Source: a virus (Duplodnaviria; Caudoviricetes). From it: a stretch of DNA of 51,303 bases. Shown piece after piece: positions 1,822 through 30,608 of the stretch. Each line of letters starts with the position of its first letter. Within the stretch, counting starts at the first letter, position 1. The notes under the pieces were generated by a model. The model was given only the letters and a program-made list of their open reading frames with translations, was not told the origin of the DNA and ran no database searches. Made by a program: the position numbers and the translations under genes. The stretch spans positions 1 to 51,303 of IMG/VR virus record IMGVR_UViG_3300038406_000089; one strand, written 5' to 3'.

Positions 1822-2235
1822 TTGTGCCACTTCTTTGTGACATGCCAGTACGCCCCTATCTATAGATAGGGGGGCGTGTACTGACACGTGAGTTTGTGAC
1901 AAATACCCTACTTGGCACGTTGTCTCTGGTAGTAAAACGCCGTCTCTCGACCCCTCGGAGTGAACTTGTACGTGCCCCGCCCGGCGCCTTTAACTAGTTT
2001 CAAATCCAACAACTTATGAAGACTCCGGTAGAACGTCCTGCGATTCAAGTCGCTGGCGGTCTGCCAATCCTCGACGGTGAATACCTCGTCACTAGTGTTT
2101 TCTATTGTGACAGCACAAAGTAGCAAATCCCTCAATGAATCCGAAGTTAGTGACATGACATAAGGTGGCACAACCGTCGAATTTTCCAATGAAAGCACGA
2201 GACTCTGCTGGCACGAACGCACTCCCATTGTGACA
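1822..2235. other. Putative replication origin: 20-bp palindrome plus TTGTG(A/C)CA repeats
   Basis: CCCCTATCTATAGATAGGGG at 1853-1872; TTGTGMCA at 1822, 1835, 1894, 2105, 2228 and inverted at 2166; spans the 3' end of the helicase gene. Confidence 0.5.
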
Positions 2236-2945: not shown

Positions 2946-3126
2946 ACGCCTCCAGCCATTCGCCCAACTCGGTGTAGCCCAGTATCACACGACGCTTGTG
3001 ATTGTCCTTGGCGAGGTAGAACGTAAGCCCGCCTTCGACGCCACGAGTGAGACAAACACGCTCTGTCGTCCACCCTACAAGGGCTTCGGATATCTCATCA
3101 TCGCACTTTTCGGAGCTGTCGAGCAT
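2932..3126 (-). CDS. Hypothetical protein
   Basis: 64-aa ORF overlapping the helicase start. Confidence 0.5.
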   Translation of the reverse strand: MLDSSEKCDDEISEALVGWTTERVCLTRGVEGGLTFYLAKDNHKRRVILGYTELGEWLEACEDE

Positions 3127-3170
3127 ACCAACCCCCTATACTAGAGTAACTAGAGTAGAGCACCGTTGCT

Positions 3171-4223
3171 CTACTCAGTCTCGACCGCGCCGAGATGCGC
3201 ATCGGGAGCATCTGCTACGACGCCAAGGTGATCTTCCTCGAACTGCGCCTTGAGAAGTTGTTCCTTCCACCACTCAGGGAAGCCGCGCGTGATGCCTCGT
3301 GAGATGTGCGGCCATGCCCACTTCCACAACGCACGCTCGATTGCTTCCTTCTCCTCCTGCCCGGTGTCCTTCTGGATCTCGATGAGGAGCTTGCCGATGT
3401 CGCGTGGGCTATCCTCCAGCTCGCCACGCTCGCGCAGATGCTGCACGGCTTTGAGCCAGCGCCCCTCGACACGCAGGCCGGCGATGAGACGTTCGAGGAT
3501 GTCGCCGCTGTTCGGGCTCGTCTCCTTCCACGCCTGTTTGTGAGCTTCCTTGAAGCGCTCCGAGACGAACTTGCCCATCAGCGTCTTCTTGTCCACGCCG
3601 TACAGCTCGACCAGCGGCTTGATGACCACGCCCTCGATGAGCTGACCGCCGAGCACGGACTGGGTGTTGTCGAGGATGTTGCGAAGACTGTCCAAGGTGG
3701 CTCCGTGATAGCCCTGCTCGCTTTCGTTTAGGACAGGCACGCATTCGAGCCCGATACGCTCGAACTCGGCGCGCTTGTCGGTCGGATTCAACCACTCGTT
3801 GTCGCCTGTGCTCACGTCGAAGCCAATCAGGTTGTCGCTCGGCACGCGGTCATATGCGAGCGTATTGTGATTGCGCTTCGCTAGGTACTCCGCTCGATAC
3901 GTCCAGCCTGGGTGCAGAAGATGCAGGCGGAATTTCACGCTCTCTACCGCCTTCGTGAACATCTTCTCGGGCGCGTCAGGATTCATCACGCAGCCCTTCG
4001 AGCGAACACGTAGCTCCTGCACCGTGCCGACACCTGCCGGACAATCGCAGTTGAATAGTCCTACTGACCTGTTACAACCGAGACAGATTTGATCTTCAAA
4101 TAAACCAAACGAGAACTGTGAGCCATCGACCTTCTCTTCCACGATATGCGGGTAGTTCAGCAGCTCGCGCACGGCACGGTGCCCCAGGTTGTAGATCGAC
4201 GGATACGAAGTCCAGCTACTCAT
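3171..4223 (-). CDS. ATP-dependent RNA ligase (Rnl2-like)
   Basis: YPSI N-terminus, motif I EEKVDGSQ, IGFDV, motif IV EGVVIK, motif V KFVSERFKE; start at 4223 has GGAGG RBS. Confidence 0.85.
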   Translation of the reverse strand: MSSWTSYPSIYNLGHRAVRELLNYPHIVEEKVDGSQFSFGLFEDQICLGCNRSVGLFNCDCPAGVGTVQELRVRSKGCVMNPDAPEKMFTKAVESVKFRLHLLHPGWTYRAEYLAKRNHNTLAYDRVPSDNLIGFDVSTGDNEWLNPTDKRAEFERIGLECVPVLNESEQGYHGATLDSLRNILDNTQSVLGGQLIEGVVIKPLVELYGVDKKTLMGKFVSERFKEAHKQAWKETSPNSGDILERLIAGLRVEGRWLKAVQHLRERGELEDSPRDIGKLLIEIQKDTGQEEKEAIERALWKWAWPHISRGITRGFPEWWKEQLLKAQFEEDHLGVVADAPDAHLGAVETE

Positions 4224-4444
4224 CGTGTGTATCCTCCCACAAAGCAGTTCTCGCGCAGGGACCAAACGCCGACGTTCGTGATCGTGTCGCGCGTGTCTTC
4301 GAGCAGCGCTCTCGCCTCGCTCTCGACATCATCGCGCTCGGTCGGGGTCATCAGCCACTCGGACGTGAAGAAGCCCTTCTTCGTCTTGTGCGGGCGCGAG
4401 ACGCAGAAGCAGAAGGGGCCGTGATGGTTATCAAGAAACGTCAT
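4220..4444 (-). CDS. Hypothetical protein
   Basis: MTFLDNHHGPFCFCVSRP...; GGAGG RBS; overlaps ligase start. Confidence 0.6.
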   Translation of the reverse strand: MTFLDNHHGPFCFCVSRPHKTKKGFFTSEWLMTPTERDDVESEARALLEDTRDTITNVGVWSLRENCFVGGYTR

Positions 4445-4601
4445 CGGCCCTCCAGATAGCGCGCACCCGTGCAAGCTGAAAGCACACCAGCCCGCCCAAG
4501 CGAGTCCTGACGAGCAAATGCTTTCCGTTCGACCGTACTTCGAGAACGTCGTGACAGCAGAAGATCCCTTTGGTGCTGTAGTCGATGTTGATGCAGATCA
4601 T
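4431..4601 (-). CDS. 56-aa protein, paralog of 43112-43285
   Basis: My translation: MICINIDYSTKGIFCCHDVLEVRSNGKHLLVRTRLGGLVCFQLARVRAIWRADDVS; AAGGAG RBS; below the ORF-track cutoff. Confidence 0.7.
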   Translation of the reverse strand: MICINIDYSTKGIFCCHDVLEVRSNGKHLLVRTRLGGLVCFQLARVRAIWRADDVS

Positions 4602-4963
4602 CGCAGCTCCTTTGCCGCTTCACTCGGCGCCCACCCCTCGCGGATGATCTCTACCTCGACAGGCCGGCGCCCGAACTCCAGCGCTTCGTAGCACGACCAG
4701 AAGTAGAGATCGAGGATGCGGCCTTTGATCGCCGGCCCCGTATCCTGCACCGAGTAGATGCCATCCCAGCGGGGATCGCCGGCATCCACGCGCACGATGC
4801 TACCGAGCGGTAGCACGCGCGGGTCCGCCGCCGCCATGCCCCTCCGCACCTTGAGCCCGGTGGCGGTGTGCGTGCCCTTACAGTAGGCTGTGGCGGTCCA
4901 GCTCTGTGCGCTCAACGTAATCGACGCGAGCAGTGCGAAGATTACGAGTGCTACTCGACGCAT
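4598..4963 (-). CDS. 3D-domain (MltA-like) cell-wall protein with signal peptide
   Basis: ATAY...TATG...AAADPRVLPLGS...DTGPAIKGRILDLY...FGRR; three Asp of the 3D motif. Confidence 0.9.
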   Translation of the reverse strand: MRRVALVIFALLASITLSAQSWTATAYCKGTHTATGLKVRRGMAAADPRVLPLGSIVRVDAGDPRWDGIYSVQDTGPAIKGRILDLYFWSCYEALEFGRRPVEVEIIREGWAPSEAAKELR

Positions 4964-5160
4964 TATTCACCGTCCTTGATTGCAGCCAGCTCGTAGAGCA
5001 CCCATGTGACTAGCTCAGGATTCGAGTGCATGAGCAGCCTGAGCCCATCCCTGATAGTCTCGCGCGAGTGCTCGCGAACCAGCATGGCGGCTTTGAACAT
5101 ATCAGACATGCAATTCAGACAGTGAAGCTGTTTCACATTTACCTCCCGAACAGCAGCCAC
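4963..5160 (-). CDS. Hypothetical protein
   Basis: ORF tiles between neighbours; start uncertain. Confidence 0.45.
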   Translation of the reverse strand: MAAVREVNVKQLHCLNCMSDMFKAAMLVREHSRETIRDGLRLLMHSNPELVTWVLYELAAIKDGE

Positions 5161-5300
5161 TTCCAGCGTCCGAAGAATCCGCGTCCCGCGAGCGAGATGA
5201 ACTGAAGCCGCGTCAGGCCGATCTCTCGTGCGAGCGACTGAGCGACCACACGCCGCCCCTCGATCTTCGCTGCACGCTTCGTACGATTCTGATTACTCAT
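5139..5300 (-). CDS. Basic protein, possibly HTH-like
   Basis: MSNQNRTKRAAKIEGRRVVAQSLAREIGLTR; GGAGG RBS. Confidence 0.5.
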   Translation of the reverse strand: MSNQNRTKRAAKIEGRRVVAQSLAREIGLTRLQFISLAGRGFFGRWKWLLFGR

Positions 5301-5351
5301 GCGTTCCTCCAGCGGGCGAAGCTGCCCATTGCCACGTGTCTTGTGCATACC

Positions 5352-5684
5352 CTACTCCATGTTCACAATATCGTGAACACGCCACTCTGCGTGAACGTGG
5401 GCGTAATGCCCTGGAACTTGCCAGTAGACGAGCAGCCCGTGACCGTCGAGCCACTCAGCTAGTCCAGCAAGATCCGTGCCATGCCAATCGAGCGCTCGAT
5501 CCTCGTAGTGTGCGCTGTTGCGCGAGTGAACATGGTCATTCGCCGATACCACCGTTAGCTCATTCCCCGTGCGCACTGCCCAGATGTCCGCGATATCGAA
5601 CAGTGCGTGATTGAGCTGTCCCTCCAAGCGGACAGGAACGCGAAGCCCTTCAACTACCGTGGCCTGCCCGCTGCGGTAGGGGGG
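5352..5684 (-). CDS. Peptidase M15-type (Hedgehog/DD-peptidase fold) domain without a convincing start of its own
   Basis: SANDHVH...SAHYEDRALD...HVHAEW (H-x6-D...H zinc ligands); see the frameshift finding. Confidence 0.75.
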   Translation of the reverse strand, partial: PPYRSGQATVVEGLRVPVRLEGQLNHALFDIADIWAVRTGNELTVVSANDHVHSRNSAHYEDRALDWHGTDLAGLAEWLDGHGLLVYWQVPGHYAHVHAEWRVHDIVNME

Positions 5685-5884
5685 ACGACGTATCCTTGCT
5701 GCGAGAGCAGATCCTTGATGCCCTCGACTTCCTTGCTGAGTGCCTCGATGTGCTGAGCCTGGAGCCTCGCGCTCGCCTCGTACTGGTACAGGAGCTGCCC
5801 CGTCATGTGCCACACGAACGCAATCACGCCGGCCGCAAGCACCCACGGCAGAACGACCTGCTTGAACTCATCCCAGATCCTCAT
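5654..5884 (-). CDS. Membrane-anchored coiled-coil protein
   Basis: GAGGAGG RBS; N-terminal TM VVLPWVLAAGVIAFVW followed by heptads. Confidence 0.7.
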   Translation of the reverse strand: MRIWDEFKQVVLPWVLAAGVIAFVWHMTGQLLYQYEASARLQAQHIEALSKEVEGIKDLLSQQGYVVPPTAAGRPR

Positions 5885-6143
5885 TGAGCCTCCTCGTAGT
5901 GCCGATGGAACCGTATTCCTCGTCTTCGGGATCGTTCACCCAGAAGCGCTGTCCCTCGGTAGGCAGCTCGCTTCGGATGAGTGTGCCGCCCCACGACTTG
6001 CGTGGGATGACGCGAAACGTCAGCGGTGTTTCGATGAGGCGACGGCGTTCCTCGTGCGTGAGCGGCCGATTGCGCAACTTCTCAGCCGCACGCTTGAGCT
6101 TCTTGCCTACTTCCGGTGTTGGATCGAGTGGGTGTCCGCTCAT
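5868..6143 (-). CDS. Hypothetical protein
   Basis: MSGHPLDPTPEVGKKLK...; ATGA coupling. Confidence 0.55.
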   Translation of the reverse strand: MSGHPLDPTPEVGKKLKRAAEKLRNRPLTHEERRRLIETPLTFRVIPRKSWGGTLIRSELPTEGQRFWVNDPEDEEYGSIGTTRRLNEDLG

Positions 6144-6283
6144 CGGTTCTTCCCCCGCTTGATACGCCCGTGGTAGCACTTGCCCTTCGCGGTGCAAGCT
6201 CCCGTGCGCGTGTGTCCGACGTAGCCGGTGATCTTGCCCTTGTTCTGCGGGCCGAACTTGATGATGGCGGCTTTGGATGCCAT
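6140..6283 (-). CDS. Small basic protein
   Basis: My translation: MASKAAIIKFGPQNKGKITGYVGHTRTGACTAKGKCYHGRIKRGKNR. Confidence 0.5.
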   Translation of the reverse strand: MASKAAIIKFGPQNKGKITGYVGHTRTGACTAKGKCYHGRIKRGKNR

Positions 6284-6603
6284 TAGTCTTTGTTCCTCGC
6301 AATGATGCGTTCTTCACCGATCAACCGACCAGGGAGAACACGCCCGAGATTATGCACAGGATTCCCCACCGCACAACACACCTGGAACAGCTCAGTGTTC
6401 GGGTAGCTGGACAGAGCGGTTTCGAGGGTCTTGCGGCTCACTGCCACGTAGCGAGATCCCTTCGACAGCTCGGTCACGTCGCCGTGCCGCAGCTCACGCT
6501 CGTTGAACACATCGGGGAACAGCGTCTTCAGCACCCGCGCCGCATCGCCACACTTGCTCGCCGCCTCCAGCACTCGTTCGCTCGTGATCTTGAGTTCAGC
6601 CAT
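6283..6603 (-). CDS. Hypothetical phage protein
   Basis: MAELKITSERVLEAASKCGDAARVLKTLFPDVF; AAGGAGG RBS. Confidence 0.65.
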   Translation of the reverse strand: MAELKITSERVLEAASKCGDAARVLKTLFPDVFNERELRHGDVTELSKGSRYVAVSRKTLETALSSYPNTELFQVCCAVGNPVHNLGRVLPGRLIGEERIIARNKD

Positions 6604-6659
6604 CGACGTTGCCTCCTTCGCTGAAAAGTATCCGGGTTCTGCGATGCGAATATGACCGC

Positions 6660-6830
6660 TCACTTGTCTTCCTTCTCCTTCGTGCCGTCCACCGCAACCA
6701 CATGCCAGTTGCAGAGATTGAATCCTCCCTGCACAGGCTGCGGCTCGCCCACCTTGTAGGCGTCACGATGGTTGACTGCTTCGACAATGCGTGCTCTCGT
6801 CCACACTTCATAGACTACGAACTTTGCCAT
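6660..6830 (-). CDS. Hypothetical protein
   Basis: My translation: MAKFVVYEVWTRARIVEAVNHRDAY...FNLCNWHVVAVDG. Confidence 0.5.
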   Translation of the reverse strand: MAKFVVYEVWTRARIVEAVNHRDAYKVGEPQPVQGGFNLCNWHVVAVDGTKEKEDK

Positions 6831-7171
6831 TAGAGTAATCCTTTCAGGTAATCGAGCACCACGAGACGCGGGAAGTTGGTCGCGTAGTAGAAGTCATACC
6901 AGCTGCCAGTAACCAGTAGACCGGCGATGATGACAATGGTAAGACCGAAGAAGCCGGCGATGCCTTCTTCTCCCATTGTGAACTCGTAGACGATCATCAG
7001 AACGCCAAGCACAGCAAGTGCCACGCCAGCCCACCACCCTACCGTGGCCTGGAGAATCGCAGCTCCGACAATGTCCTGCAACACAGCCGGGAGCTGATCT
7101 GCGCCCGAGTTGGCAAGGTCGATCATCCGGCGAACGAACTCCTGAAGCGCGTCGGTAATCTCCGGTGTCAT
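6830..7171 (-). CDS. Two-TM membrane protein, first gene of the leftward arm
   Basis: AAGGAGGAG RBS; two hydrophobic helices; PRLVVLDYLKGLL C-terminus. Confidence 0.75.
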   Translation of the reverse strand: MTPEITDALQEFVRRMIDLANSGADQLPAVLQDIVGAAILQATVGWWAGVALAVLGVLMIVYEFTMGEEGIAGFFGLTIVIIAGLLVTGSWYDFYYATNFPRLVVLDYLKGLL

Positions 7172-7195
7172 ATGCTCCTCCTTCGTTCACTGGCA

Positions 7196-7535
7196 TGCAA
7201 CCTCCATGCCTGCCCCGGTCCAAGCGAGAATGGACTGCCCCGGTCCCGCCGAATCCAGACCCCGGCCTGCATGCAAAGCACGTGCCATGCGGCGACTGGC
7301 ACGCACCTTGCATGCGGCGCGCGCTTGGCACGGAGCTTGCTTGTGCTTCGTGTCCACTTCGCTGTCTCGGAATAGCACGCGCTAAACTACTCCAGTAGCA
7401 CGGCTTGTGCCAACCTGTTCCACCCTAGAACACGCCTATGTTTCGAGACGGAGCATACGCCAGCGTCCACGATTGCGGACAATCGGCGTTTTCCTTAGTG
7501 TTTTCGTGTCCTAACGGTATGGCATGACGTGTGCT
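7196..7535. promoter_or_regulatory. Divergent cluster of six sigma-54 (-24/-12) motifs
   Basis: Minus: AGGCATGGAGGTTGCA 7196-7211, TGGCACGTGCTTTGCA 7272-7287, TGGCACAAGCCGTGCT 7397-7412. Plus: TGGCACGCACCTTGCA 7297-7312, TGGCACGGAGCTTGCT 7326-7341, TGGCATGACGTGTGCT 7520-7535. All keep GG-N10-GC spacing. Confidence 0.8.
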
Positions 7536-7595
7536 CTATACGGTGGCGTGAGCCGATGGCGTGAGCCGACAAGCTCAAAGCACACGGAGGATGTC

Positions 7596-8090
7596 ATGCA
7601 ATCATGGCAGGGAAAGCCTGCCAGCGTCTTTTACTGGCCTGAACTCGGCCAATGGTTCGGCCGCGATGCGAACGGTTCGCACGTGGCGATTACTGAAAGG
7701 GAGGCGATAGAGCGTATGGCAGAGACAACTAGCGCACGTTGTTACGAGCACAGGGACAGAGACACGCTGCCGTCACTCTGTCACACGTGCCAGCGTATCG
7801 CAGTCGAGCGAGACATCGTTACGCGCGCTATCGATGCGCTCGTTTTGGCAGGCTATCAGGTTCGCGAGTCTGAAGACGGAGCATTTACGGATACCCGTTC
7901 CGTCTTGCTCAATCTGCTGTTTGACCTTGATGACGCGTTCGTTATCGCCAATCACAAGGAATCCGGTAAATCTGGCTGGGTTCGCTTCGTGTTCGGCAAT
8001 GACGGATACGACGTTATCAGCGACTACACTATCAGTCTTGAGTCTGTGCTAGCGCCAGTCAACGCTTACGCCGATACGCTGGCAGTCTAG
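7596..8090 (+). CDS. First early-region protein
   Basis: GGAGG RBS before ATG 7596; C-terminal GWVRFVFGNDGYDVISDY motif. Confidence 0.75.
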   Translation: MQSWQGKPASVFYWPELGQWFGRDANGSHVAITEREAIERMAETTSARCYEHRDRDTLPSLCHTCQRIAVERDIVTRAIDALVLAGYQVRESEDGAFTDTRSVLLNLLFDLDDAFVIANHKESGKSGWVRFVFGNDGYDVISDYTISLESVLAPVNAYADTLAV

Positions 8091-8102
8091 GAGCGCAAGC
8101 AC

Positions 8103-8297
8103 ATGAGCAAGTTTGACTACCGTGACCCTGGAACGGACGCGCGATACTGCAATGGCCTATCTCCGTATCCTGCCGCACCTGATGATGCCGAGTGCTGTGC
8201 ATGGTGCGGGGACATCCTTCCAGACGACAAGCACTATCCGTATTGCTGTTCACTGTGCGGCATTCATGCTGAGCAAGACTCAGCGGAAGGGAAGTAG
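8103..8297 (+). CDS. Early zinc-finger protein
   Basis: CAWC...YCCSLC; AGGAG RBS. Confidence 0.6.
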   Translation: MSKFDYRDPGTDARYCNGLSPYPAAPDDAECCAWCGDILPDDKHYPYCCSLCGIHAEQDSAEGK

Positions 8298-8299
8298 AC

Positions 8300-8506
8300 A
8301 TGACTGAGCTTATCGTAATCGCGCATGCTGTCGTTTTCTTGCTTGTCCTGTTCGCTGTGACTGCTGGTATCGTGGCACTCGCGAGCAGGGCGTATCGTCG
8401 GAGCGTTCGACCGTCCACGCATCGCCACTATACGCCGTATGGTGGCGCAAGGGAGATTGCACGCCGTAAGCGACAGCTAGAACGCGGTATCGTTCGGTGT
8501 AACTAA
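8300..8506 (+). CDS. Early single-TM protein with basic tail
   Basis: Long hydrophobic N-terminus; GAREIARRKRQL. Confidence 0.6.
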   Translation: MTELIVIAHAVVFLLVLFAVTAGIVALASRAYRRSVRPSTHRHYTPYGGAREIARRKRQLERGIVRCN

Positions 8507-8535
8507 ACTCGTCACACAGAAAGGGAGATTGCATC

Positions 8536-8772
8536 ATGCCTCGTATCGCTCGCAAACGTAACGCTGTTCTCGATTACCTCCGCAAGTGGAAAAGCGACAC
8601 GGATAGCAATATTGCGCTGTCGCTCGACATGCCTGCTCCGTCCGTCCGTCGATGCATTCAGGAACTCATTCACGAAGGACACAACGTCACTTTCGCTAGC
8701 GCGACTGGCCTGTATACGCTCACGTTCACTCAGGCGCCCGAGACTTCGGCGCCTAGCACGGAGGTTGTCTAA
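8536..8772 (+). CDS. Winged helix-turn-helix protein
   Basis: NAVLDYL...IALSLDMPAPSVRRCIQELIHEGH...GLYTL. Confidence 0.7.
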   Translation: MPRIARKRNAVLDYLRKWKSDTDSNIALSLDMPAPSVRRCIQELIHEGHNVTFASATGLYTLTFTQAPETSAPSTEVV

Positions 8773-8773
8773 C

Positions 8774-9127
8774 ATGGCAAAGGACCAAGCAATCACGCGC
8801 AATCTTGCGGACGCACAGACAGCGCACGCATACCGCAAGCTCGCTGCAGAGCGACAGGGCGATAGCGTCCTGTATACGCTCTACACCGAAGATTACCCGA
8901 ACCTTATCGAGCTTGTGTCTCGATACTTTCCGGGCGCTACGCTCTACTACGCGATTGGTTGGTGGCAGGGTGGCATAGAGTCTTCGCGCGTAATCGAGAT
9001 TGTCGGCAAGCATGACGACTTGCAGCGCATCGTCCACCTTGCTGGCGATATCCGCCACGTGAACAATCAATCGTCTGTGCTCGTCACGTGGGCGCCCGTC
9101 AATTCGCTGCTCGTATCGGAGCCTTAA
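8774..9127 (+). CDS. Early hypothetical protein (ferredoxin/PII-like pattern)
   Basis: GGAGG RBS; YFPGATLY...GWWQG..E.S.VIEI...NNQSSVLV. Confidence 0.65.
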   Translation: MAKDQAITRNLADAQTAHAYRKLAAERQGDSVLYTLYTEDYPNLIELVSRYFPGATLYYAIGWWQGGIESSRVIEIVGKHDDLQRIVHLAGDIRHVNNQSSVLVTWAPVNSLLVSEP

Positions 9128-9129
9128 CC

Positions 9130-9276
9130 ATGTCGCGCGCATTGTCCGCAGTGTGGGCACTCATCAAGCATAGGCTGTTCTGTCGCCATGAATACATCAG
9201 GCGATACGAGCGACATTGCATCTATCTGGAGTGCTTGCACTGTGGACGCGAAACGGAAGGATGGTTGATAGACTGA
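9130..9276 (+). CDS. Small Cys/His protein
   Basis: FCRHEY...CLHCGRET. Confidence 0.5.
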   Translation: MSRALSAVWALIKHRLFCRHEYIRRYERHCIYLECLHCGRETEGWLID

Positions 9277-9887
9277 TGCCGCGATGCCAATTCGACAAGC
9301 GCAAGGATGAACTCTGCGAGAACTTGCGCATGCTTTGGAACACTCGCGAGCTTGCAGATAACACGGATGGCGCCGCATGGTATCCGAAAGCGCAAGCTAT
9401 CGTTAGCGAGTGGGCGCAATCGTTCGGCATCCAACGTGAGACGGTTGCTTGTGTGGTTGCTGCACTGTCGCCACAAATCGACTGGGAACGCAATCTCATC
9501 ATCGCAGACGATATCTTGCATGGCTTACCGCCTAGTATCCGAGGATTGCAATCAAACGTCACGAAAGCGCAGCGTATCCTTGCTGATGGCGCTACCGATA
9601 CGCTGCTCTACTTCCCGCAAGGCCCCAAGGTGGCATCGTTCGCGCGCAACCTATGGGGCGATATGTCATTCGTGACGGTCGATACACACTGCATTCAGGC
9701 TGCTTTGAACGATGCCGCAAGCACAGTAACGCTCCGATGGACGCCGTATACCGTGTTCGCAGAATGCTACGCGACCGTCGCGCGTGAGCTTGACTTGCAG
9801 CCTGCTACGTTTCAGTCAATCATCTGGCACACGTGGAAGCGCTTGTATCCTCGCATGCGCAAGCATGCGCTTAGAAAGCGATGGTAA
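9276..9887 (+). CDS. Phage protein with DNA-glycosylase (HhH)-like motifs
   Basis: WY..A, AALSPQIDWERN, GPKVASFARN, VTVDTH, FQSIIW; catalytic-like Lys and Asp. Confidence 0.65.
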   Translation: MPRCQFDKRKDELCENLRMLWNTRELADNTDGAAWYPKAQAIVSEWAQSFGIQRETVACVVAALSPQIDWERNLIIADDILHGLPPSIRGLQSNVTKAQRILADGATDTLLYFPQGPKVASFARNLWGDMSFVTVDTHCIQAALNDAASTVTLRWTPYTVFAECYATVARELDLQPATFQSIIWHTWKRLYPRMRKHALRKRW

Positions 9888-10039
9888 GCCGTGATAATGC
9901 GTCTATGGTGCGCATGGTGCGTATGGAACACGGAACACAAACACATCAACGGTAACACGTGGCAATGCCTCGCATGTGAGCGATACGGCAAAGCTAGCGA
10001 AACACTGGCATCGGCACTCTACAAAAGGAGATAACGACA

Positions 10040-10303
10040 ATGAACGTAACGCACACTGATAACCTGAAACCGCGTCCGCTTTGCGTGATTGCTGCAGAGA
10101 TTGCGCGCGATTGGAAGCAACCGTATTTCGGCGCTGTTCCGTATCTGCAGGCCATGCGCAATCTTGGCGACATCAGCGAGGATTACGACTGCGATAGCGC
10201 TGTCTCGGTTGTGCTCTACTTCTTGAGCAACGCGAACACGTGGCGTGGGGAAACCGCAAGGCGCATCAAGGCGGAACTCAAATCGATTGTGAAGGGACGG
10301 TAA
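10040..10303 (+). CDS. Conserved early phage protein
   Basis: AAGGAG RBS; RPL..IA.EI..DW..PYFGAVPYL.AM...YFLSNA.TWRGETARRIKAELK. Confidence 0.75.
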   Translation: MNVTHTDNLKPRPLCVIAAEIARDWKQPYFGAVPYLQAMRNLGDISEDYDCDSAVSVVLYFLSNANTWRGETARRIKAELKSIVKGR

Positions 10304-10307
10304 GCAC

Positions 10308-10496
10308 ATGGCAACCATTCGACTGCTCGTAACGGTTGAAACGGACGATAGCGCTATTGCTGTCACTTCGCAGCAAATCAGAGACGAGATAGCGTCTAAC
10401 CTCGAATACGACCCCGGAGAATACGGCATCGTCTCGTCCGAGGTTGCTATCTGCGATGATTACCGTGGACGCATCGTAGGGAGTCACGAACGATGA
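10308..10496 (+). CDS. Small acidic early protein
   Basis: 62-aa Asp/Glu-rich ORF in a tiled operon. Confidence 0.55.
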   Translation: MATIRLLVTVETDDSAIAVTSQQIRDEIASNLEYDPGEYGIVSSEVAICDDYRGRIVGSHER

Positions 10497-10693
10497 GCGA
10501 CACATACCGCATCGTCCGACACTACTTCAACGGGCCTCCGTATCGACGCACAATCGAGACTGGCCTATCGTTGGAACAAGCACAAGCTCACTGCCAGAAC
10601 AAGGACATATCGTCAAGCACCGGCACATCAGCGAGCGCACGCAAGCGAACGCGTGAACGTGGTCCGTGGTTTGACGGATACGAACAGGAGTAG
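10493..10693 (+). CDS. Early hypothetical protein
   Basis: YRIVRHYF...TGLSLEQAQAHC...WFDGY. Confidence 0.65.
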   Translation: MSDTYRIVRHYFNGPPYRRTIETGLSLEQAQAHCQNKDISSSTGTSASARKRTRERGPWFDGYEQE

Positions 10694-10695
10694 TA

Positions 10696-10905
10696 ATGCC
10701 TGAGAAAACCGAACAGGAGTATCGACGCGATTGCAAGTGCAACGATTGCGAGGATACGCGCAAAGTGCTCACCCTGCTGGACGATATCGCTACTTCAGAT
10801 TGTGCAATGGGCATGTATGACGTTGATTGTCTGTGCGAAGCTCGCGAAGTGCTCGCACGCGTCATCGGCGCCAACTACAACGAAGGGACAAACCGCTATG
10901 ACTAA
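10696..10905 (+). CDS. Early hypothetical protein
   Basis: AGGAG RBS; Cys-containing and acidic. Confidence 0.5.
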   Translation: MPEKTEQEYRRDCKCNDCEDTRKVLTLLDDIATSDCAMGMYDVDCLCEAREVLARVIGANYNEGTNRYD

Positions 10906-11131
10906 GCCACATTTCGACCATGCAGCCTCAATGGTGCGCGCTATCCTCGCAGGCGAATGGACGAACGAGTTACCCGATTGGGCGCAATCGGTTGTCGCAT
11001 ACGGATACGATACGTATCCGCGTGTGCGTGCAGTGCAGACAGCAGAGGCATTCTTGCTGCTGTTCACGGCATTCAATCCACGTTTCAAACGTGATAGGTT
11101 TCTCAAAGCCTGCGGTTTGATTGGAGAGTGA
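10898..11131 (+). CDS. Early hypothetical protein
   Basis: MTKPHFD..A...NPRFKRDRFLKACG motif. Confidence 0.65.
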   Translation: MTKPHFDHAASMVRAILAGEWTNELPDWAQSVVAYGYDTYPRVRAVQTAEAFLLLFTAFNPRFKRDRFLKACGLIGE

Positions 11132-11134
11132 AGC

Positions 11135-11320
11135 ATGTCCCCAGACTTCGACTTGTGCGGTAACATCATGGCCTACGAATCTGGCGAGCTTGATGAAGTG
11201 GAGATAATCGAGCTTTTCCAGCACCTTGTCGATACTGGCCTAGTGTGGAGCCTGCAAGGTCATTACGGACGCATGGCCGAGCGGTTGATTGATTCGGGCC
11301 TCGTGATTGCGAAAGGATAG
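11135..11320 (+). CDS. Small acidic early protein
   Basis: [38 protein letters not shown]. Confidence 0.7.
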
Positions 11321-11324
11321 GCCA

Positions 11325-11504
11325 ATGAAACTAACCGATGATGAGCTTGCTTTGTGCAGCGAAGCGCTGAGGATTGCTAGCGCTTACCTGCTCGAACAGG
11401 CGGAATGGTTCGAGCGCACACTACCAAGGGCGAACGCTCCCGAGGTATTCCGCAAGTATGCCGAACAGATGCGCGATGTTCAGAAGCGCATTGAAGCGAG
11501 GTAA
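11325..11504 (+). CDS. Early helical protein
   Basis: AAGGA RBS; MKLTDDELAL... Confidence 0.55.
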   Translation: MKLTDDELALCSEALRIASAYLLEQAEWFERTLPRANAPEVFRKYAEQMRDVQKRIEAR

Positions 11505-11510
11505 GCACAT

Positions 11511-11717
11511 ATGAAAGTCTGCTCAAAGCATCCGAAGTATCGCGGCCTTTCGAAACCGCGTAGCACGTGCGAGCGTTGTTGGCAAATCTGGTTCGGTATC
11601 TGCGATTACTGCGTCAACAGCGGTTGCAGCGTGCTTGATACAGATTGCGACCTATGCTGCAGCGACACACCATACGATGAGGAGAATTGCGAAGTTGTTG
11701 TTCGCCGCAAGCGCTAG
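11511..11717 (+). CDS. Cys-rich early protein
   Basis: CSKHPKY.G...PRSTCERCWQIW plus further Cys pairs. Confidence 0.6.
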   Translation: MKVCSKHPKYRGLSKPRSTCERCWQIWFGICDYCVNSGCSVLDTDCDLCCSDTPYDEENCEVVVRRKR

Positions 11718-11730
11718 CCCGCCTGCACTC

Positions 11731-11773
11731 GGGACTATACTCTAGCAAGCTCTAGTAACTAGAGTATAGTCCC
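11731..11773. repeat. 15-bp perfect inverted repeat closing the early operon
   Basis: GGGACTATACTCTAG (11731-11745) / CTAGAGTATAGTCCC (11759-11773); no U-tract. Confidence 0.8.
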
Positions 11774-12161
11774 TCAATTCCCATTAGTAATGTATGTAGC
11801 GTTCGATTGTGTGTTGCTTTGGTGTGTCGATTAGGCGTGTTGACGTTCATCGCGCGTAACAATCATCAACAACACTCAGCACTCCATGTTACGGTGCATG
11901 CCTGCTCGCTATGTGCGATGCATCCATACTGCGCCGCGAGCATGAGCGCAGCATGCGGCATGCGCATCATTCGCGCCCCGATGCGCGCAGCTACTTACTG
12001 AGTTCTTGATATCAGTAAGTACATGCGTGATGCTAAGTACTTTGCGATGCAAAGCGCAGCCGGACCAGGTACGGGGGTGGACCCCCTCGCGAGGTAGTGC
12101 CGCCCCTGGGGCCGAAGGGTGGCTGCGCGAAAATTTTATAGCGGAGGGGTCTATTGCGGGT

Positions 12162-12236
12162 TGGGTGGGCGCCGGGACTCGAACCCTGATCGCTCGGTTC
12201 ACAGCCGAGTGCTCTGCCAGTTGAGCTAGCGCCCAC
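12162..12236 (-). tRNA. tRNA-His (GUG)
   Basis: G-1/TGGGCGC...GCGCCCA/C73-CCA; D arm GCTC/GAGC; anticodon arm CTCGG-CTGTGAA-CCGAG; TTCGAGT loop; irregular T-stem. Confidence 0.88.
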
Positions 12237-12503
12237 ATGAGTCACTGACGCCGCGATCTGCGGTCAGCCCAGTCGATGAGGAGCTGAAGCGCGATCATGG
12301 CGAAGATCGTGATGGCGATGGATGTAGCGGTCATCAGAGCACTCGATACAGCAGATCAACAGGACCGAACTGTGCCATGTAGCGGTTGAGCCAGTCGAGA
12401 AGGCTCATGCTGTTGTCAACGACGATGGTGTCCACCGAGCGCATGTCTCGGCACTGGATGATGTACTTTTCTGATCGCATCAGTATGCCTCTGTATTCTG
12501 TGG

Positions 12504-12580
12504 TGGTTGGGGAGGCAGGAATCGAACCTGCTCGATACCTCGGGTCCAGACCGAGTGACTCACCTTTTGTCCACTCCCCA
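12504..12580 (-). tRNA. tRNA with Gln-like body; anticodon ambiguous (CUG out of register, or UGG)
   Basis: TGGGGAG/CTCCCCA acceptor, A73, CCA; GAC/GTC D-stem; CTCGG-TCTGGAC-CCGAG; GCAGG-TTCGATT-CCTGC. Confidence 0.85.
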
Positions 12581-12585
12581 TCCCG

Positions 12586-12819
12586 CTAGTACAGCCTCTT
12601 CCCTTCCTTGACCATCCGCAGCGCCGCACGTAGCTTCGACGTGCCGCGCGCTTTGTTGTGCATGCGAGTGTGCTCGCCGCGCTCCATCACGCGGCGGTTC
12701 GTCTTCGAGTTGTCGGCCTTGTCTTCGTTCACGTGATCCACGACTTCGCTGGTCTTGAGCTTGCGCCCAAGCTCTACCTCAGTTAACGAGCGGTGATGAT
12801 CGGATTTTCTGTCCCGCAT
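12586..12819 (-). CDS. HNH endonuclease-like protein
   Basis: HR...E..LGRKL...EVVDHVNEDKADN...N..VM...EH.RMH. Confidence 0.75.
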   Translation of the reverse strand: MRDRKSDHHRSLTEVELGRKLKTSEVVDHVNEDKADNSKTNRRVMERGEHTRMHNKARGTSKLRAALRMVKEGKRLY

Positions 12820-13929: not shown

Positions 13930-14636
13930 AGAAGCCGGGTCGCCCTCGAAACCTGGGGCCACTCTCTCCCAAGCCCGTCGCTGAGGCACCGAACTCCCCG
14001 GCATCCCTCCCTCTGCCGGGTCGAGGCGATGAGACGCCATCTGCCCCCACTACCGCTCTGGAGCTGTCTACGCCGTGCCCGCGTTGCGGTGCCAAGCACA
14101 GTGCTGCTGCAACCGAATGCGGCCTATGCGGTCTGAACTTGCAGCAGTCGGTCGTCCCTGAGAAGAAGCCGCACTGGTGGCGCCCGGCTGACTCGGAGAT
14201 CCGCAAGAAGGCGATCAAGATCGTCCTCATGCGCTCGTCGGGCATGGAAGACGCGGAGATCGCTGCTGCTCTCGGAATCGGACTCAGGACTGTCTCCAAT
14301 TACGTACAGGTCGCGGGCAAGAACGGCTGGCTCGAATCCGATCTCGTCGCTGACCCGAAGGAGAGACTCGAATACGACCTGATGCACAAGGTCGTGCGCA
14401 ACATGGCAGAGTCGCTTGACAGCTACAATCCGGTGACGCGCCATGAAGCGGCGATGGAGATCGCGAAGGGTACGCTCTTCAAGAAGTTCGCAGAGGCCGG
14501 ACCCGCAGTTCAGAACACCAACGTCCTGAAGATCCAGATCATCCAGGCGCCCGGCCCGCCGATTCAGATTCGCGAGGAGACGACTGGCGGCATGCCAGCA
14601 TACGTCGAAGGTGAAGTCGTCGGGGAGAGCAAGTAA
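13896..14636 (+). CDS. Probable terminase small subunit (zinc ribbon + HTH)
   Basis: GGGAGG RBS at ATG 13896; CPRC...CGLC; GMEDAEIAAALGIGLRTVSNY HTH; immediately upstream of the large subunit. Confidence 0.65.
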   Translation: MVSTRRSKKRAKKPGRPRNLGPLSPKPVAEAPNSPASLPLPGRGDETPSAPTTALELSTPCPRCGAKHSAAATECGLCGLNLQQSVVPEKKPHWWRPADSEIRKKAIKIVLMRSSGMEDAEIAAALGIGLRTVSNYVQVAGKNGWLESDLVADPKERLEYDLMHKVVRNMAESLDSYNPVTRHEAAMEIAKGTLFKKFAEAGPAVQNTNVLKIQIIQAPGPPIQIREETTGGMPAYVEGEVVGESK

Positions 14637-14640
14637 CTGC

Positions 14641-16215
14641 ATGCTCAAGGAAACAAAACTCCCACCGGGTTGCGGAGCGGACCTGAACGAGCCGCTCCTG
14701 CACAATCCCTACCAGCAGGCATTTCAGGATGCGCGCCGGCAGCGGTTCTGTCTCAACTGTCGCACGATTGGCTCGATGGACATCAATAGCGTGTTCATCT
14801 GCCGACGTTGTCAGACTCGCCACTTCAGCAACCTGACCGCTCCGCGTCTCTTCGACCGCCTGCTTGTGCTTGCGGGTCGAGGCGGCGGCAAGACCCTCAT
14901 CGGTGCGCACGCTGCGCGCGAGGAGATGATGGTTCCTGACTCTATCGGGTGGGTCATGGGGCCGACGTACAAGATCCTCCACGACTCGACGTTCCCGACG
15001 CTCGTGCGGCGCATCCCGCCTGCGTGGGTGCAGCGGTGGGATCCCGAACACATGGAGATCCGCCTGACGAATGGCGCCCTCGTGGCCTTCCGTTCCCTCG
15101 AAGACCCCGAACGAGCGCGAGGCCCGCACGGTGTCTCCTGGGGCTGGTTCGATGAGGCTGCGCAGTCTCCCGAGCGCGCGTACGACGTGTTCGAGCCGAC
15201 GCTGATCAAAGCTGGCGGCATCGTGATCGCAACAACGACCGTGCTCGGCTACGACTGGACGTACGACAAGATCGAGAAGCGCGCCCAGGTCTACAAGGAG
15301 CCCGGCTACTGGGCGACCCGTTACTGGACGGAGGAGAATCCCCTGTTCAGGACGAGCCCGGTCATGGCGCGTCAGATCGAGCGTGCTCGCAAGACGATGT
15401 CTCCTGAGTTCTTCGCGCAGGAATACAGGGCCGAGCGCCGCAACGCAAGCGGGTTGATCTACAGCTACGAGCAGATCGAGAAGCAGACGCTGCTCGACGC
15501 CGAGGCGGTCAAGAAGTTCATCCCCGAGTGGCCGAACATCGATCCGTCGCGTCCTATCCTCATCGGGCTCGACTCCGGTGCGGACCATCCGTTCGGTGCC
15601 GTGCTGGTCGTCGTGACGCCGAAGGGGCTCGTAGTCGTCAAGGATTACCTGAAGCGCAATCAGGCGCTATCGCAGCATCTACCATCAGTGACGATGGACT
15701 TCGGTACGTCCAGATTCGTGGACGTTAAGTGGGCAGCGAACAAGAACGAGGCGAACCTGCGACTGGAGTGGGGTCTGAAGGGCGTTGGCATCATCCCTGC
15801 CGAGAACAAGCACGAGATCGGCATCCAGCGTGTGCAATCGTGGCTTCACAGCGGTCAGCTCTACTTCGCGTACACAGCAACCGCAACCATCGAGCAGATG
15901 CGCGCGTACCGCTACGCCGACAACCTGAAGTCTGACGGTCAGAAGCGTGTGAAGGAAGATGTCTTCAAGCTGAAGGACGAGCTTCCAGATGCACTACGCT
16001 ACGCGCTGATGGCGTGGCCGGCGCTCCCCGATGCTGATAGGCCGGCGATGACACCGCAGGAGGAACAGCGCTGGAACGCGCTCGATGATCGCAGCCGCGC
16101 TGATATCGAACGTCTGCGCGAGTTCAACAAGCGCAACACGGATCAGGATCTTCAGCCCGAGGAATCTGGCTTCCCCATCGGGAGCTTCTTCTCGCCGCTG
16201 TCTCAATCTTGGTAA
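14641..16215 (+). CDS. terL: Terminase large subunit
   Basis: Walker A AGRGGGKT, Walker B WFDEAA, motif III ATT, RNase H-like GLDSG and DELPDALRY. Confidence 0.92.
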   Translation: MLKETKLPPGCGADLNEPLLHNPYQQAFQDARRQRFCLNCRTIGSMDINSVFICRRCQTRHFSNLTAPRLFDRLLVLAGRGGGKTLIGAHAAREEMMVPDSIGWVMGPTYKILHDSTFPTLVRRIPPAWVQRWDPEHMEIRLTNGALVAFRSLEDPERARGPHGVSWGWFDEAAQSPERAYDVFEPTLIKAGGIVIATTTVLGYDWTYDKIEKRAQVYKEPGYWATRYWTEENPLFRTSPVMARQIERARKTMSPEFFAQEYRAERRNASGLIYSYEQIEKQTLLDAEAVKKFIPEWPNIDPSRPILIGLDSGADHPFGAVLVVVTPKGLVVVKDYLKRNQALSQHLPSVTMDFGTSRFVDVKWAANKNEANLRLEWGLKGVGIIPAENKHEIGIQRVQSWLHSGQLYFAYTATATIEQMRAYRYADNLKSDGQKRVKEDVFKLKDELPDALRYALMAWPALPDADRPAMTPQEEQRWNALDDRSRADIERLREFNKRNTDQDLQPEESGFPIGSFFSPLSQSW

Positions 16216-29939: not shown

Positions 29940-29989
29940 GCTAGTTATAAGGCGCAAAATACGCTACAATAGATAGCGAAGGAACTCTC

Positions 29990-30607: not shown

Positions 30608-30608
30608 C

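Follow-up and report, generated by a model that had tools for sequence, protein, structure and literature searches.

Why should a phage genome with 306 copies of GATC in its 51303 bases (direct count) be entirely free of that word over some five kilobases, and why should those five kilobases coincide with a single block of small genes? The window, that is, the whole stretch of DNA analysed, is the full 51,303-nt record IMGVR_UViG_3300038406_000089, a metagenome assembly of an uncultured phage of ~51 kb.

The gap and its null models

Before the gap, GATC last occurs at 7121-7124, and it first reappears at 12188-12191, both positions as given by a first-pass annotation of the same DNA (the nine sites that it counted in the first kilobase are in fact ten): the gap measures 5067 bases, against 839 for its runner-up in the window. 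The segment's own composition predicts 19.4 sites from base frequencies, 24.1 from a first-order and 28.2 from a second-order model; the rate of the remaining genome predicts 33.5, and the Poisson tail for complete absence is ~6e-13. The segment is less GC-rich (55.0% vs 59.7%) and its word usage differs (CATG, CTAG, TGCA and TATA are commoner in it), and the annotation had itself named local base or codon composition as a possible way out. When synonymous codons were shuffled in the 15 called CDS of the block (1334 codons), 5000 shuffles gave a mean of 16.8 GATC and a minimum of 3, and none reached zero; across the null models, 17-34 sites are expected where none is observed. Isoleucine after a codon ending in G is never written ATC (0/15; 11 ATT, 4 ATA), as the annotation had perceived, while 43 of the block's 53 other isoleucines are ATC (Fisher p 7e-9); aspartate before a codon starting with C is GAC in 6/6 cases, compared with 36/85 elsewhere (p 0.008). 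The choice of isoleucine and aspartate codons changes exactly where GATC would arise, and the depletion is explained neither by composition nor by codon usage.

GGCC, TCGA and AGCT are not excluded, as the annotation had said (17, 29 and 17 copies in the segment). Outside the block, 305 GATC stand against 388 expected, which falls short of genome-wide avoidance; what the window contains is a delimited segment significantly lacking two words that are common elsewhere. The second of these is GTAC. A count of the kind that the annotation had proposed as a check ranks GATC first and GTAC second in depletion among 2728 strand-symmetric 4-6-mers, and the two words hold the same ranks for largest gap among 1460 words. 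GTAC has 165 sites in the rest of the genome; its largest gap (5786-12019) spans 6233 bases and the next largest 1202. Within 7125-12187 there are 3 GTAC where 18-20 are expected, and within the block CDS none against 13.5 (0/5000 shuffles reach 0). The right ends of the two zones lie at most 170 bases apart, beyond the last ORF of the block; on the left, the GTAC-free zone begins 1.3 kb earlier than the GATC-free one and so takes in DNA that contains 10 GATC. The GTAC gap is absent from the first-pass annotation, as are the glycosylase-like hallmark gene and the thought of import from a GATC-free relative.

Layout of the block and its borders

The block is a single plus-strand unit of ~16 small ORFs, mostly of no assigned function (Table 1), flanked by a divergent promoter-like region on one side and by a minus-strand tRNA-His on the other. 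The GATC-free zone begins at the promoter-like region: the final sites before the gap, at 6992, 7096 and 7121, lie inside the last gene of the leftward arm. Exact copies of TGGCAC-N5-TTGC stand at 7273-7287 (minus strand), 7297-7311 and 7326-7340 (both plus). Units of the window are headed by promoter-like motifs of sigma-54 type, and the replication arm, tRNA block and 35-kb block likewise have TGGCAC-N5-TTGC in front of them, so that the gene block is not demonstrably earlier than those. Of the annotation's equation of the gap with the early region, the discrete small-ORF unit stands; its genes are "early" by presumption. At the far end, the inverted repeat sits in a 445-bp non-coding stretch (11718-12162), and the tRNA-His is the first gene of a minus-strand block that also contains tRNA-Pro and an HNH gene.

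Table 1. Features of the block, its borders and the two site-free segments
Feature	Positions	Strand	Remarks
GTAC-free segment	5787..12018	strandless	overlaps GATC-free segment; largest GTAC gap of genome
Last gene of leftward arm, 113 aa	6830..7171	-	weak membrane-protein PHROG match
GATC-free segment	7125..12187	strandless	0 sites vs 19-34 expected
Non-coding divergent region	7172..7523	strandless	exact TGGCAC-N5-TTGC motifs
First ORF, 188 aa (164 aa from 7596)	7524..8090	+	acidic, pI 4.7-4.9; phrog_4158
64-aa acidic ORF, 7 Cys	8103..8297	+	no family
68-aa basic ORF, hydrophobic N-terminus	8300..8506	+	40% homolog in G001
78-aa ORF	8536..8772	+	weak IclR-type HTH match, 20.3 bits (below cut-off of 22)
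117-aa ORF	8774..9127	+	phrog_16022
62-aa ORF, 4 Cys	9088..9276	+	weak phrog_4188 match
DUF7178 protein, 208 aa, hallmark gene	9261..9887	+	predicted HhH-GPD DNA glycosylase/lyase fold
47-aa ORF, 4 Cys	9891..10034	+	homolog in L027
87-aa basic protein (pI 8.7)	10040..10303	+	phrog_13953
62-aa acidic ORF (pI 4.3)	10308..10496	+	
66-aa ORF	10493..10693	+	homologs in L027, L029, L034
69-aa acidic ORF, 6 Cys	10696..10905	+	homologs in L028, L029, L041
77-aa ORF	10898..11131	+	homologs in L028, L029, L033, L034, L043
61-aa acidic DUF7417 protein (pI 4.2)	11135..11320	+	phrog_3908
59-aa ORF	11325..11504	+	no family
68-aa ORF, 10 Cys, last of block	11511..11717	+	
Perfect 15-bp inverted repeat, 13-nt loop	11731..11773	strandless	directly 3' of last ORF
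tRNA-His	12163..12236	-	contains first GATC past gap (12188)

The annotation had gone on to propose that the segment encodes an inhibitor of a GATC-directed defence, a proposal that gains nothing from a search of the block proteins against known anti-restriction families, in which none matched. Three of its candidates (11135-11320, 10308-10496 and 7596-8090) are acidic, pI 4.2-4.7, as described; the other, at 10040-10303, is basic. This last protein is 55-63% identical to 5 aligned relatives and gives a confident structure model, yet a clear fold match was not found. The first ORF has a 42% homolog in the related phage G001, and the ORF at 8774..9127 is conserved in G001 and in 11/18 metagenome loci (L027-L029, L033-L040). 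That no methyltransferase is encoded holds up: six-frame searches of the window with PF02086, PF01555, PF05869, PF00145 and PF05063, at E up to 1, detected their positive controls and gave no match. PurZ/adenylosuccinate synthetase (PF00709), the marker of a 2-aminoadenine (Z) genome, had no match in the window, and a phage RNA polymerase had none among the window ORFs scanned. A dATP/dGTP diphosphohydrolase N-domain match (35 bits) is seen at 38324-38719.

When the source run was assembled independently, a single Logan contig ran across 4626-12322. Two further samples gave matching contigs, one over 7264-7548 (0 differences) and one over 11787-12238 (1 difference); the latter and the spanning contig make both junctions real. 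Depth, weak evidence as a single figure per contig, lends no support to the annotation's alternative of a long terminal repeat: 13.6 for the spanning contig and 10.2-15 for its neighbours, with no doubling. The assembly closes as a circle with a 127-base overlap, which is also compatible with headful packaging, in which case there would be no fixed leading end. Among isolates, the terminases nearest to that of the window are T5-like but share only 22-26% identity with it, a weak hint of fixed ends. Contigs of related records (G001, L039, L037/L036, L029) end close together, 2-3 kb to the left of where the block starts; if this is the true terminus, the block in the window would be preceded by ~2.5 kb of DNA rich in GATC (4.6-7.1 kb).

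The hallmark gene and the phages that carry it

The structure model of DUF7178 (pLDDT 90.3) was compared with 48,161 PDB representatives: the top 22, comprising all with Z of at least 5, belong to the HhH-GPD superfamily, the next chain scores 4.5, and no HALFPIPE-fold chain is among the matches. The best (3n0u_A: Z 12.2, rmsd 3.8, 174 residues aligned) is in keeping with a predicted two-domain helical HhH-GPD fold. A sequence-level search of PDB chains gave no match; hhalign, at an E of only 0.009, pairs GPKV...VTVDTH of DUF7178 with GRKT...IAVDTH of E. coli Nth (endonuclease III), and so Lys123 with Lys120 and Asp141 with Asp138, which we take to be the catalytic residues of Nth. Lys123 and Asp141 are invariant in 14 sequences, and the alignment contains the hairpin motif, the catalytic Asp following it and the Lys that goes with lyase activity in HhH-GPD proteins. 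Homologs in isolate phages are annotated as N-glycosylase/DNA lyase. The resemblance to HhH-GPD glycosylases (Ogg2, endonuclease III, MagIII), in modelled fold and aligned Lys/Asp, touches this one gene of the block and not its motif-free property. These enzymes are known to be specific for lesions, not for sequence.

Is the site-poor state peculiar to the window? In 19 distinct loci carrying DUF7178 the gene itself holds no GATC, where 53 are expected; within 1.5 kb to either side, 46.5 kb over all the loci, there are 4 GATC vs 217 expected and 18 GTAC vs 171. The median pairwise nucleotide identity of these loci is only 0.56, so that the state has been maintained, not just inherited; the comparison supports selection against GATC as a long-standing property of the module in all 19. 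In G001 avoidance takes in the entire record (GATC 0 vs 203 expected over 50.5 kb, GTAC 2 vs 108), and it is contig-wide in L037 (0 vs 58), L033 (1 vs 70) and L039/L040 (0). L029 is a second lineage with a bounded block: GATC is 0 there vs 12-17 expected and GTAC 0 vs 15-17, the right flank has 10 GATC and 4 GTAC, and the left flank has 4 GTAC and no GATC. GTAC avoidance is thus limited to the L029 block on both sides, while GATC resumes at the right edge and its absence continues leftward to the contig end. L038 has 2 GATC in a 3.1-kb block between site-rich flanks. Three loci (window, L029, L038) do carry sites next to the block, on one flank or both, and in these the block holds 0, 0 and 2 GATC: none is half-filled.

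Compared with G001 and L037, early genes (39-59%) and flanking genes (32-68%) of the window have diverged similarly, which would fit co-descent. Block GC3 is alike in four lineages (0.58-0.64) whose backbones differ (0.73-0.86), a uniformity suggesting that the module could move between backbones. G002, whose capsid genes make it the nearest complete relative, has another early region, and tblastn (E 1e-6, at least 60 aa) detects in it no homolog of the early genes or the polymerase gene of the window; it has no localised palindrome gap and is GATC-normal (216 vs 280 expected). Three related records without DUF7178 are GATC-normal. An unselected block would soon acquire a site: 99 + 128 neutral one-step routes lead to one, and the probability of no new site at 5% neutral divergence is 0.02.

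Proposed selection on the operon and its rivals

We tentatively favour the reading (probability roughly 0.4) that selection at the DNA level keeps two Type II-like sites, GATC and GTAC, out of an early operon. The agents would likely be host Type II-like nucleases cutting at these words, and the operon would have to remain uncut and expressed during their activity, either 1) as the first DNA to enter, in the manner of the T5 first-step-transfer and the T7/Murciavirus leading regions, or 2) because a cut within it would block the phage from ever producing protective functions. The remaining 46 kb, it is proposed, could tolerate their 305 GATC and 165 GTAC because they would be exposed, or needed, only once protective functions act; relatives lacking such protection would have purged both words genome-wide. 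This account builds on the depletion, its codon signature, its coincidence with an operon, its persistence in relatives that have diverged deeply and the bounded block of L029; restriction as the agent, the order or timing of entry, and a protective function are what it would add.

The staged-entry precedents to which the annotation appealed are real. In T5-like phages (Tequintavirus), according to PMC10644984, R-M is effective only when sites fall in the first-transferred region: this is a sub-genomic segment of early genes, as the block is presumed to be, and its freedom from sites decides sensitivity; T5 likewise tolerates many sites elsewhere, and protection of its remainder is given as unexplained. 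The T5 segment, however, lies within a terminal repeat of ~10 kb, and its entry in two steps is proven, while the window has undoubled contig depth and is a 51-kb genome with podovirus-like internal virion protein matches and only distantly T5-like terminases. Its depletion is the stronger, two 4-base palindromes being wholly absent as against T5's few missing 6-base sites. For Murciavirus, motifs count only within the first-injected region (PMC12455610); in it and the T7-like Autographiviridae, as is proposed for the block, R-M selection is focused on first-injected DNA, and the early genes of the leading region are variable and accompanied by anti-defence genes. The motif there is a single one, of Type I, and the phages have their own RNA polymerase and known ends, whereas the window has sigma-54-type promoter-like motifs and no RNA polymerase match in the ORFs scanned. 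Avoidance of the type of phiX174, described as GATC-devoid (PMC5014478), is shared by G001, L037, L033 and L039/L040 over everything sampled, but not by the window.

Could the pattern be a passive legacy? Recombination at its intergenic or tRNA borders might have brought the module, not long ago, out of a site-free relative and into a backbone that tolerates sites, so that it would be too young there to have gained any. Carriers free of sites over whole records or contigs are many, so that donors would be plentiful; the backbones of the window and of G002 are GATC-normal; block and backbone GC3 are decoupled in 4/4 lineages tested; the borders, at a promoter region on one side and a tRNA gene on the other, are typical exchange points; and gene content is mosaic, as the missing G002 homologs attest. 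We nevertheless consider import, the main rival, rather unlikely: it requires less than ~4-5% neutral divergence since the event, yet a search of 5.8 billion proteins found no relative of the window's DUF7178 closer than 64% identity. It would also require three histories for the L029 contig, and it sits poorly with the want of half-filled blocks, with block and flanks being about equally diverged from G001 and L037, and with a GTAC-free zone that oversteps the GATC-free one across 10 GATC. An artefact (chance, local composition, or a chimera of GATC-free and GATC-rich phages) is very improbable indeed: the record is a metagenome assembly and the segment's GC and word usage do deviate, but codon-preserving shuffles never lose GATC, the Poisson tail is minute, and independent contigs bear out the borders.

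Selection by host nucleases has one further competitor, to which we give little credence: an early enzyme of the module, DUF7178 being the candidate, would attack GATC/GTAC in host DNA, and phage DNA present with it would need to contain neither word, which in G001-like phages would apply genome-wide and in the window just to the block exposed first. GATC is depleted around the gene in all soil-clade DUF7178 loci, the related records without the gene are GATC-normal, the zero of G001 is absolute, and the predicted fold with its invariant Lys/Asp aligns with endonuclease III. The lesion specificity of HhH-GPD enzymes tells against it; so do distant homologs (29-35%) in GATC-normal genomes (Rockstar, 332 GATC vs 372 expected; S-CBP42, 324 vs 311), with GATC inside the gene. 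The window's 305 other sites would still call for staged exposure, and the co-occurrence may merely reflect common ancestry and hosts. For one avoided word, GTAC, a specific restriction enzyme that works by base excision does exist: R.PabI, which has AP-lyase activity, is however a host R-M component of HALFPIPE fold and not a phage early gene, and homology to the window was not found. How T5 spares its own first-transferred DNA during host-DNA degradation is called unclear in PMC10644984.

Should this improbable reading nonetheless be true, DUF7178 would be a phage-borne, word-specific base-excision weapon, motif-free DNA would mark what coexists with it, and the arrangement would be this clade's answer to the problem of sparing first-entering DNA while the host chromosome is destroyed.

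Two palindromes and the early-type block

GATC occurs 306 times in the window, and one gap between successive sites, from 7121 to 12188, spans 5067 bases (the second-largest spans 839). From its own composition the segment should hold 19.4, 24.1 or 28.2 sites (orders 0, 1 and 2), and at the rate seen elsewhere in the genome 33.5. (A technical note: the first-pass annotation had counted nine GATC in the first kilobase; the recount gives ten.) Shuffling synonymous codons with proteins and codon pool held fixed (15 called coding sequences of the block, 1334 codons, 5000 shuffles) leaves a mean of 16.8 sites and a minimum of 3: zero is reached in 0/5000. The codon rule that had been read off by eye, that Ile after a G-ending codon is not written ATC, stands up to counting (0/15, against 43/53 at other positions; p 7e-9), and GAC is the choice for Asp in 6/6 cases where the next codon starts with C, versus 36/85 elsewhere (p 0.008).

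Word counts over the segment likewise bear out the statement that other palindromes are not excluded from it. The first-pass annotation did not mention a second avoided word, GTAC, of which the segment holds 3 against 18-20 expected, at 12019, 12037 and 12069, all in its non-coding right end. The coding sequences of the block contain none (13.5 expected), a result that synonymous shuffling again reaches in 0/5000 trials, and the genome's largest GTAC gap, from 5786 to 12019 (6233 bases; next 1202), overlies the block. Among 2728 strand-symmetric words of 4-6 bases, none is depleted as strongly as GATC and GTAC, and when 1460 words are ranked by their largest gap these two again head the list (GATC with ln p about -24.5, then GTAC at about -15.3). 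The finding is genuine, of high significance, and wider than had been noted. (A gap of another kind, for ATCA/TGAT, is also unusually long: 2308 bases at 29134-31442 in the structural arm, 65% GC, ln p about -13.)

The record and the anatomy of its block

Because 127 bases at one end of the 51303-base IMG/VR record recur exactly at the other, the assembly can be closed into a circle of 51176 bases. DNA searches with the block and with 14-34 kb against 50,697 isolate phage records turned up nothing near-identical. Might the site-free segment have been stitched in by assembly? When the probable source run was assembled independently, a single contig covered 4626-12322 and with it both gap edges. 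Two other sediment samples supply contigs of low depth that match at 7264-7548 with no differences and at 11787-12238 with one; a chimera is therefore unlikely. (A source-run contig of depth 3.9, versus about 14, skips 256 bases including tRNA-Pro, window 12331-12588, and has 7 different letters there: a strain variant without tRNA-Pro.)

Features of the record and its early-type block, in window coordinates
Feature	Positions	Strand	Basis or remark
Leftward arm	~40146 through record end to 7171		codon-usage gene call
Non-coding region, 352 bases	after 6830-7171		exact TGGCAC-N5-TTGC motifs: one leftward, two rightward
Rightward block of small ORFs	7524-11717		codon-usage gene call
About 16 tightly packed small ORFs		+	
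DUF7178	9261-9887	+	family in block
DUF7417	11135-11320		family in block
PHROGs 4158, 16022, 13953, 3908			in block; all of unknown function
HTH match			in block; sub-threshold
Perfect 15-bp inverted repeat	11731-11773		
Non-coding stretch, 445 bases	up to tRNA-His		tRNA-His contains the next GATC
Short leftward block: tRNA-His, tRNA-Pro, HNH gene	12163-13511		codon-usage gene call
Rightward arm	13755-39996		codon-usage gene call
Terminase large subunit	14611-16215		family scan
Portal	16557-18965		family scan
Major head protein	19900-21192		family scan
Internal virion protein-like genes; primase/helicase			family scans
RNA ligase and polynucleotide kinase/phosphatase	3171-4265 and 42225-43124	- and -	family scans
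Family A DNA polymerase, N-terminal UDG (uracil-DNA-glycosylase)-superfamily domain	43725-46439	-	72 bits

The first gene of the leftward arm (6830-7171) still contributes 47 bases to the GATC-free zone, which begins within it. By the codon-usage gene call, GC3 is 0.54-0.66 in the block versus 0.58-0.84 elsewhere (at least 0.65 in most outside genes). Early modules of four lineages (the window's block; positions 2169-4315 of G001rc, 3485-5632 of L037 and 788-2130 of L040, all from relatives) have GC3 of 0.58-0.64 on backbones of 0.73-0.86: the composition of the early module is decoupled from that of its genome. The RNA ligase and polynucleotide kinase/phosphatase form a T4-like tRNA repair pair, alongside two tRNA genes.

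A scan of 6.5-14.5 kb found no excess of sigma-70 promoters or terminators over shuffles. The motif TGGCAC-N5-TTGC, which we take to be of the sigma-54 -24/-12 type, occurs nine times exactly in the window (5467, 7273, 7297, 7326, 13852, 13915, 34894, 34953, 35048) and 17 times with one mismatch, versus 3.3 expected; the copies stand as pairs or triplets heading non-structural units, and the motif is also exact in four relatives (G001, L007, L037, L039).

Four proteins of the block had been proposed as inhibitors of a GATC-directed defence; the three described as acidic are so indeed (pI 4.2-4.7), and the fourth, 10040-10303, is basic. Structure comparison did not advance two of them: the first ORF (7596-8090) retrieves only viral hypothetical clusters from the ESM Atlas, its NERD-like rows being meaningless at TM 0.3, and the 87-aa protein at 10040-10303, confidently modeled, has its best match (Z 6.8, arenavirus L N-terminal domain) within background.

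Relatives and the DUF7178 module

G001, a syntenic 50.5-kb IMG/VR record with protein identities of 30-65%, has no GATC where 203 are expected and two GTAC where 108 are; a 7.8-kb fragment whose terminase is 72% identical has 2 GATC versus 29, and no GTAC versus 13. (G001 is also depleted in CATG, 142 vs 253, GGCC, 204 vs 324, and CTAG, 39 vs 81; the last two are depleted in the window's backbone too, and in neither early block.) The complete 48-kb genome of G002, a relative with 78% identity in the capsid and 67% in the terminase, lacks the early genes of the window and is GATC-normal, with 216 versus 280 expected, and no significant localised palindrome gap was found in it, its own early region included.

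A metagenome scan with an alignment of DUF7178, the hallmark protein of the block, yielded 18 loci, 14 of which lack GATC altogether; identity over the best tblastn segment is 48-58%, with two short partial matches higher, at 64-70%. Genome contigs added one short MAG contig, and viral contigs gave G001 only. The pooled set comprises the window, G001, the MAG contig L044 and, once L036 and L040 were set aside as near-duplicates of L037 and L039, 16 of the 18 metagenome loci: 19 distinct loci in all. Over these the DUF7178 gene has 0 GATC versus 53 expected, and the surroundings to 1.5 kb on either side (46.5 kb) have 4 versus 217, with 18 GTAC versus 171. Median pairwise nucleotide identity in this set is 0.56; the avoidance is therefore old, and maintained in the DUF7178 module.

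How far it extends varies. L037, L033 and L039/L040 are clean throughout the 6-15 kb sampled, which takes in terminase and portal. The block of L029 has no GATC (12-17 expected) and no GTAC (15-17); its right flank has 10 GATC and 4 GTAC, its left flank 4 GTAC and no GATC. L029 thus resembles the window, with its GTAC avoidance confined to the block. L038, with site-rich flanks, has two adjacent GATC within its 3.1-kb block. (These lie at 1509-1519, 7 bases apart, and the tblastn match to the DUF7178 gene lies about 70 bases downstream; possibly the pair is a regulatory site.) No gene of the block stood out when its gene content was compared between backbones rich in sites and backbones free of them.

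DUF7178 is modeled with confidence (pLDDT 90.3). A Foldseek-independent comparison with 48,161 PDB representatives gives 22 chains with Z of at least 5, all of them members of the HhH-GPD superfamily (the next chain scores 4.5) and headed by 3n0u_A (Z 12.2, rmsd 3.8, 174 residues aligned). The DUF7178 profile finds no match among PDB sequences at E up to 10, and hhalign to E. coli endonuclease III (Nth) is weak overall (E 0.009); it pairs GPKV...VTVDTH with GRKT...IAVDTH, which places Lys123 on Lys120 and Asp141 on Asp138, presumably the catalytic residues of Nth. Lys123 and Asp141 do not vary across 14 sequences. Among isolate phages, 131 records have distant homologs (29-35%), some annotated as N-glycosylase/DNA lyase: that of Mycobacterium phage Rockstar is third from the right end (gp77; L046 45553-46128), and that of the T7-like cyanophage S-CBP42 is among small genes upstream of RNA polymerase (gp36; L047 30543-31139). 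We take both positions, Rockstar being a cluster A mycobacteriophage, to be early or leading gene sets. No paper in the library searched mentions 'DUF7178'; the family is a widespread, probably early, glycosylase-like gene of phages.

Restriction, import and the order of entry

Neutral single steps lead from the block to GATC by 99 routes and to GTAC by 128, and at 5% neutral divergence an unconstrained block would already have acquired a site with a probability of 98%. That leaves two possibilities: selection that continues to act, or a very recent arrival of the block from a donor without sites. The odds that the absence is actively maintained are about even, and most of that weight (a probability of roughly 0.4) goes to selection on the DNA itself by Type II-like nucleases of the host. 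A small remainder goes to avoidance of the phage's own enzyme: although the DUF7178 gene is GATC-free throughout the pooled loci, the genomes of Rockstar and S-CBP42 are GATC-normal, with GATC inside the homolog itself, and the enzyme family overall is therefore not tied to the word. Recent import, with the absence a passive legacy, is less likely but a serious rival: site-free donors are plentiful among the relatives, the phage group is mosaic, block GC3 is 0.58-0.64 irrespective of the backbone (0.73-0.86), and block borders are typical exchange points. Against it, the three blocks with site-bearing flanks hold 0, 0 and 2 GATC, L029 would require three histories, divergence from G001 and from L037 is alike within the block and outside, and the closest relative of the DUF7178 protein among 5.8 billion proteins is 64% identical.

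If host nucleases are the agent, what covers the 305 sites outside the block? As the first-pass annotation had it, no methyltransferase is apparent: five DNA methyltransferase families have no six-frame match, and neither does PurZ, which speaks against a Z-genome as cover; controls were recovered in both searches. A protein with a dATP/dGTP diphosphohydrolase N-domain (38324-38719, 35 bits) lies beside a nucleoside deoxyribosyltransferase-like ORF (38484-39062) that at 25.9 bits is below the 28.8 cut-off, and tblastn finds neither of these genes (35-39 kb) in G001; base modification is therefore a lead rather than a finding. (The stretches 37930-39062 and 43285-43725 may together serve the nucleotide pool or base modification.)

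Avoidance of restriction sites in only part of a genome has direct precedent. Work on T5-like phages (PMC10644984) reports it experimentally, restriction-modification being effective there only against sites within the first-transferred region, and describes protection of the remaining DNA as unknown; a 2025 study of one T7-like genus, Murciavirus (PMC12455610), reports that a Type I motif counts only in the first-injected region, where its authors argue that selection concentrates. The terminase of the window bears weak similarity to those of T5-like phages. With such precedent the earlier interpretation is plausible; leading-end position, restriction as agent and an encoded inhibitor are three links that we infer.

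Depth in the source-run Logan contigs, one figure per contig, is not doubled over the block. Four relatives have contig ends clustered 2-3 kb to the left of the block, which could mark a physical terminus or a variable spot that breaks assembly; if it is a true terminus, then in the window GATC-rich DNA would enter together with the block or ahead of it. (The ends are the starts of G001rc, L039, L037/L036 and L029, at about window 4.2-5.1 kb, syntenically within about 1 kb, adjoining homologs of window 4223-4597 and 5142-5351; the window's own-run Logan contigs also break, at 3738/3808 and 4421/4626.) Selection by host nucleases could dispense with staged entry: the operon would need only to stay uncut until expressed, a variant that fits because both motif-free zones track the operon borders.

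The same avoidance signature now appears in an uncultured soil and sediment clade without a close isolate, and is unusually clean there, with two palindromes, not one site of either, and sharp edges. The relatives provide a natural contrast series, with sisters site-free throughout, L029 with block-limited GTAC avoidance, and a relative with another module and no avoidance. Known inhibitors of Type II-like enzymes are few. If host restriction is indeed the agent, the conserved unknown proteins of the block would be candidates for such inhibitors, and motif-gap scans could, from sequence alone, locate vulnerable early DNA and anti-defence cargo in uncultured phages and also reveal the restriction specificities of their hosts.
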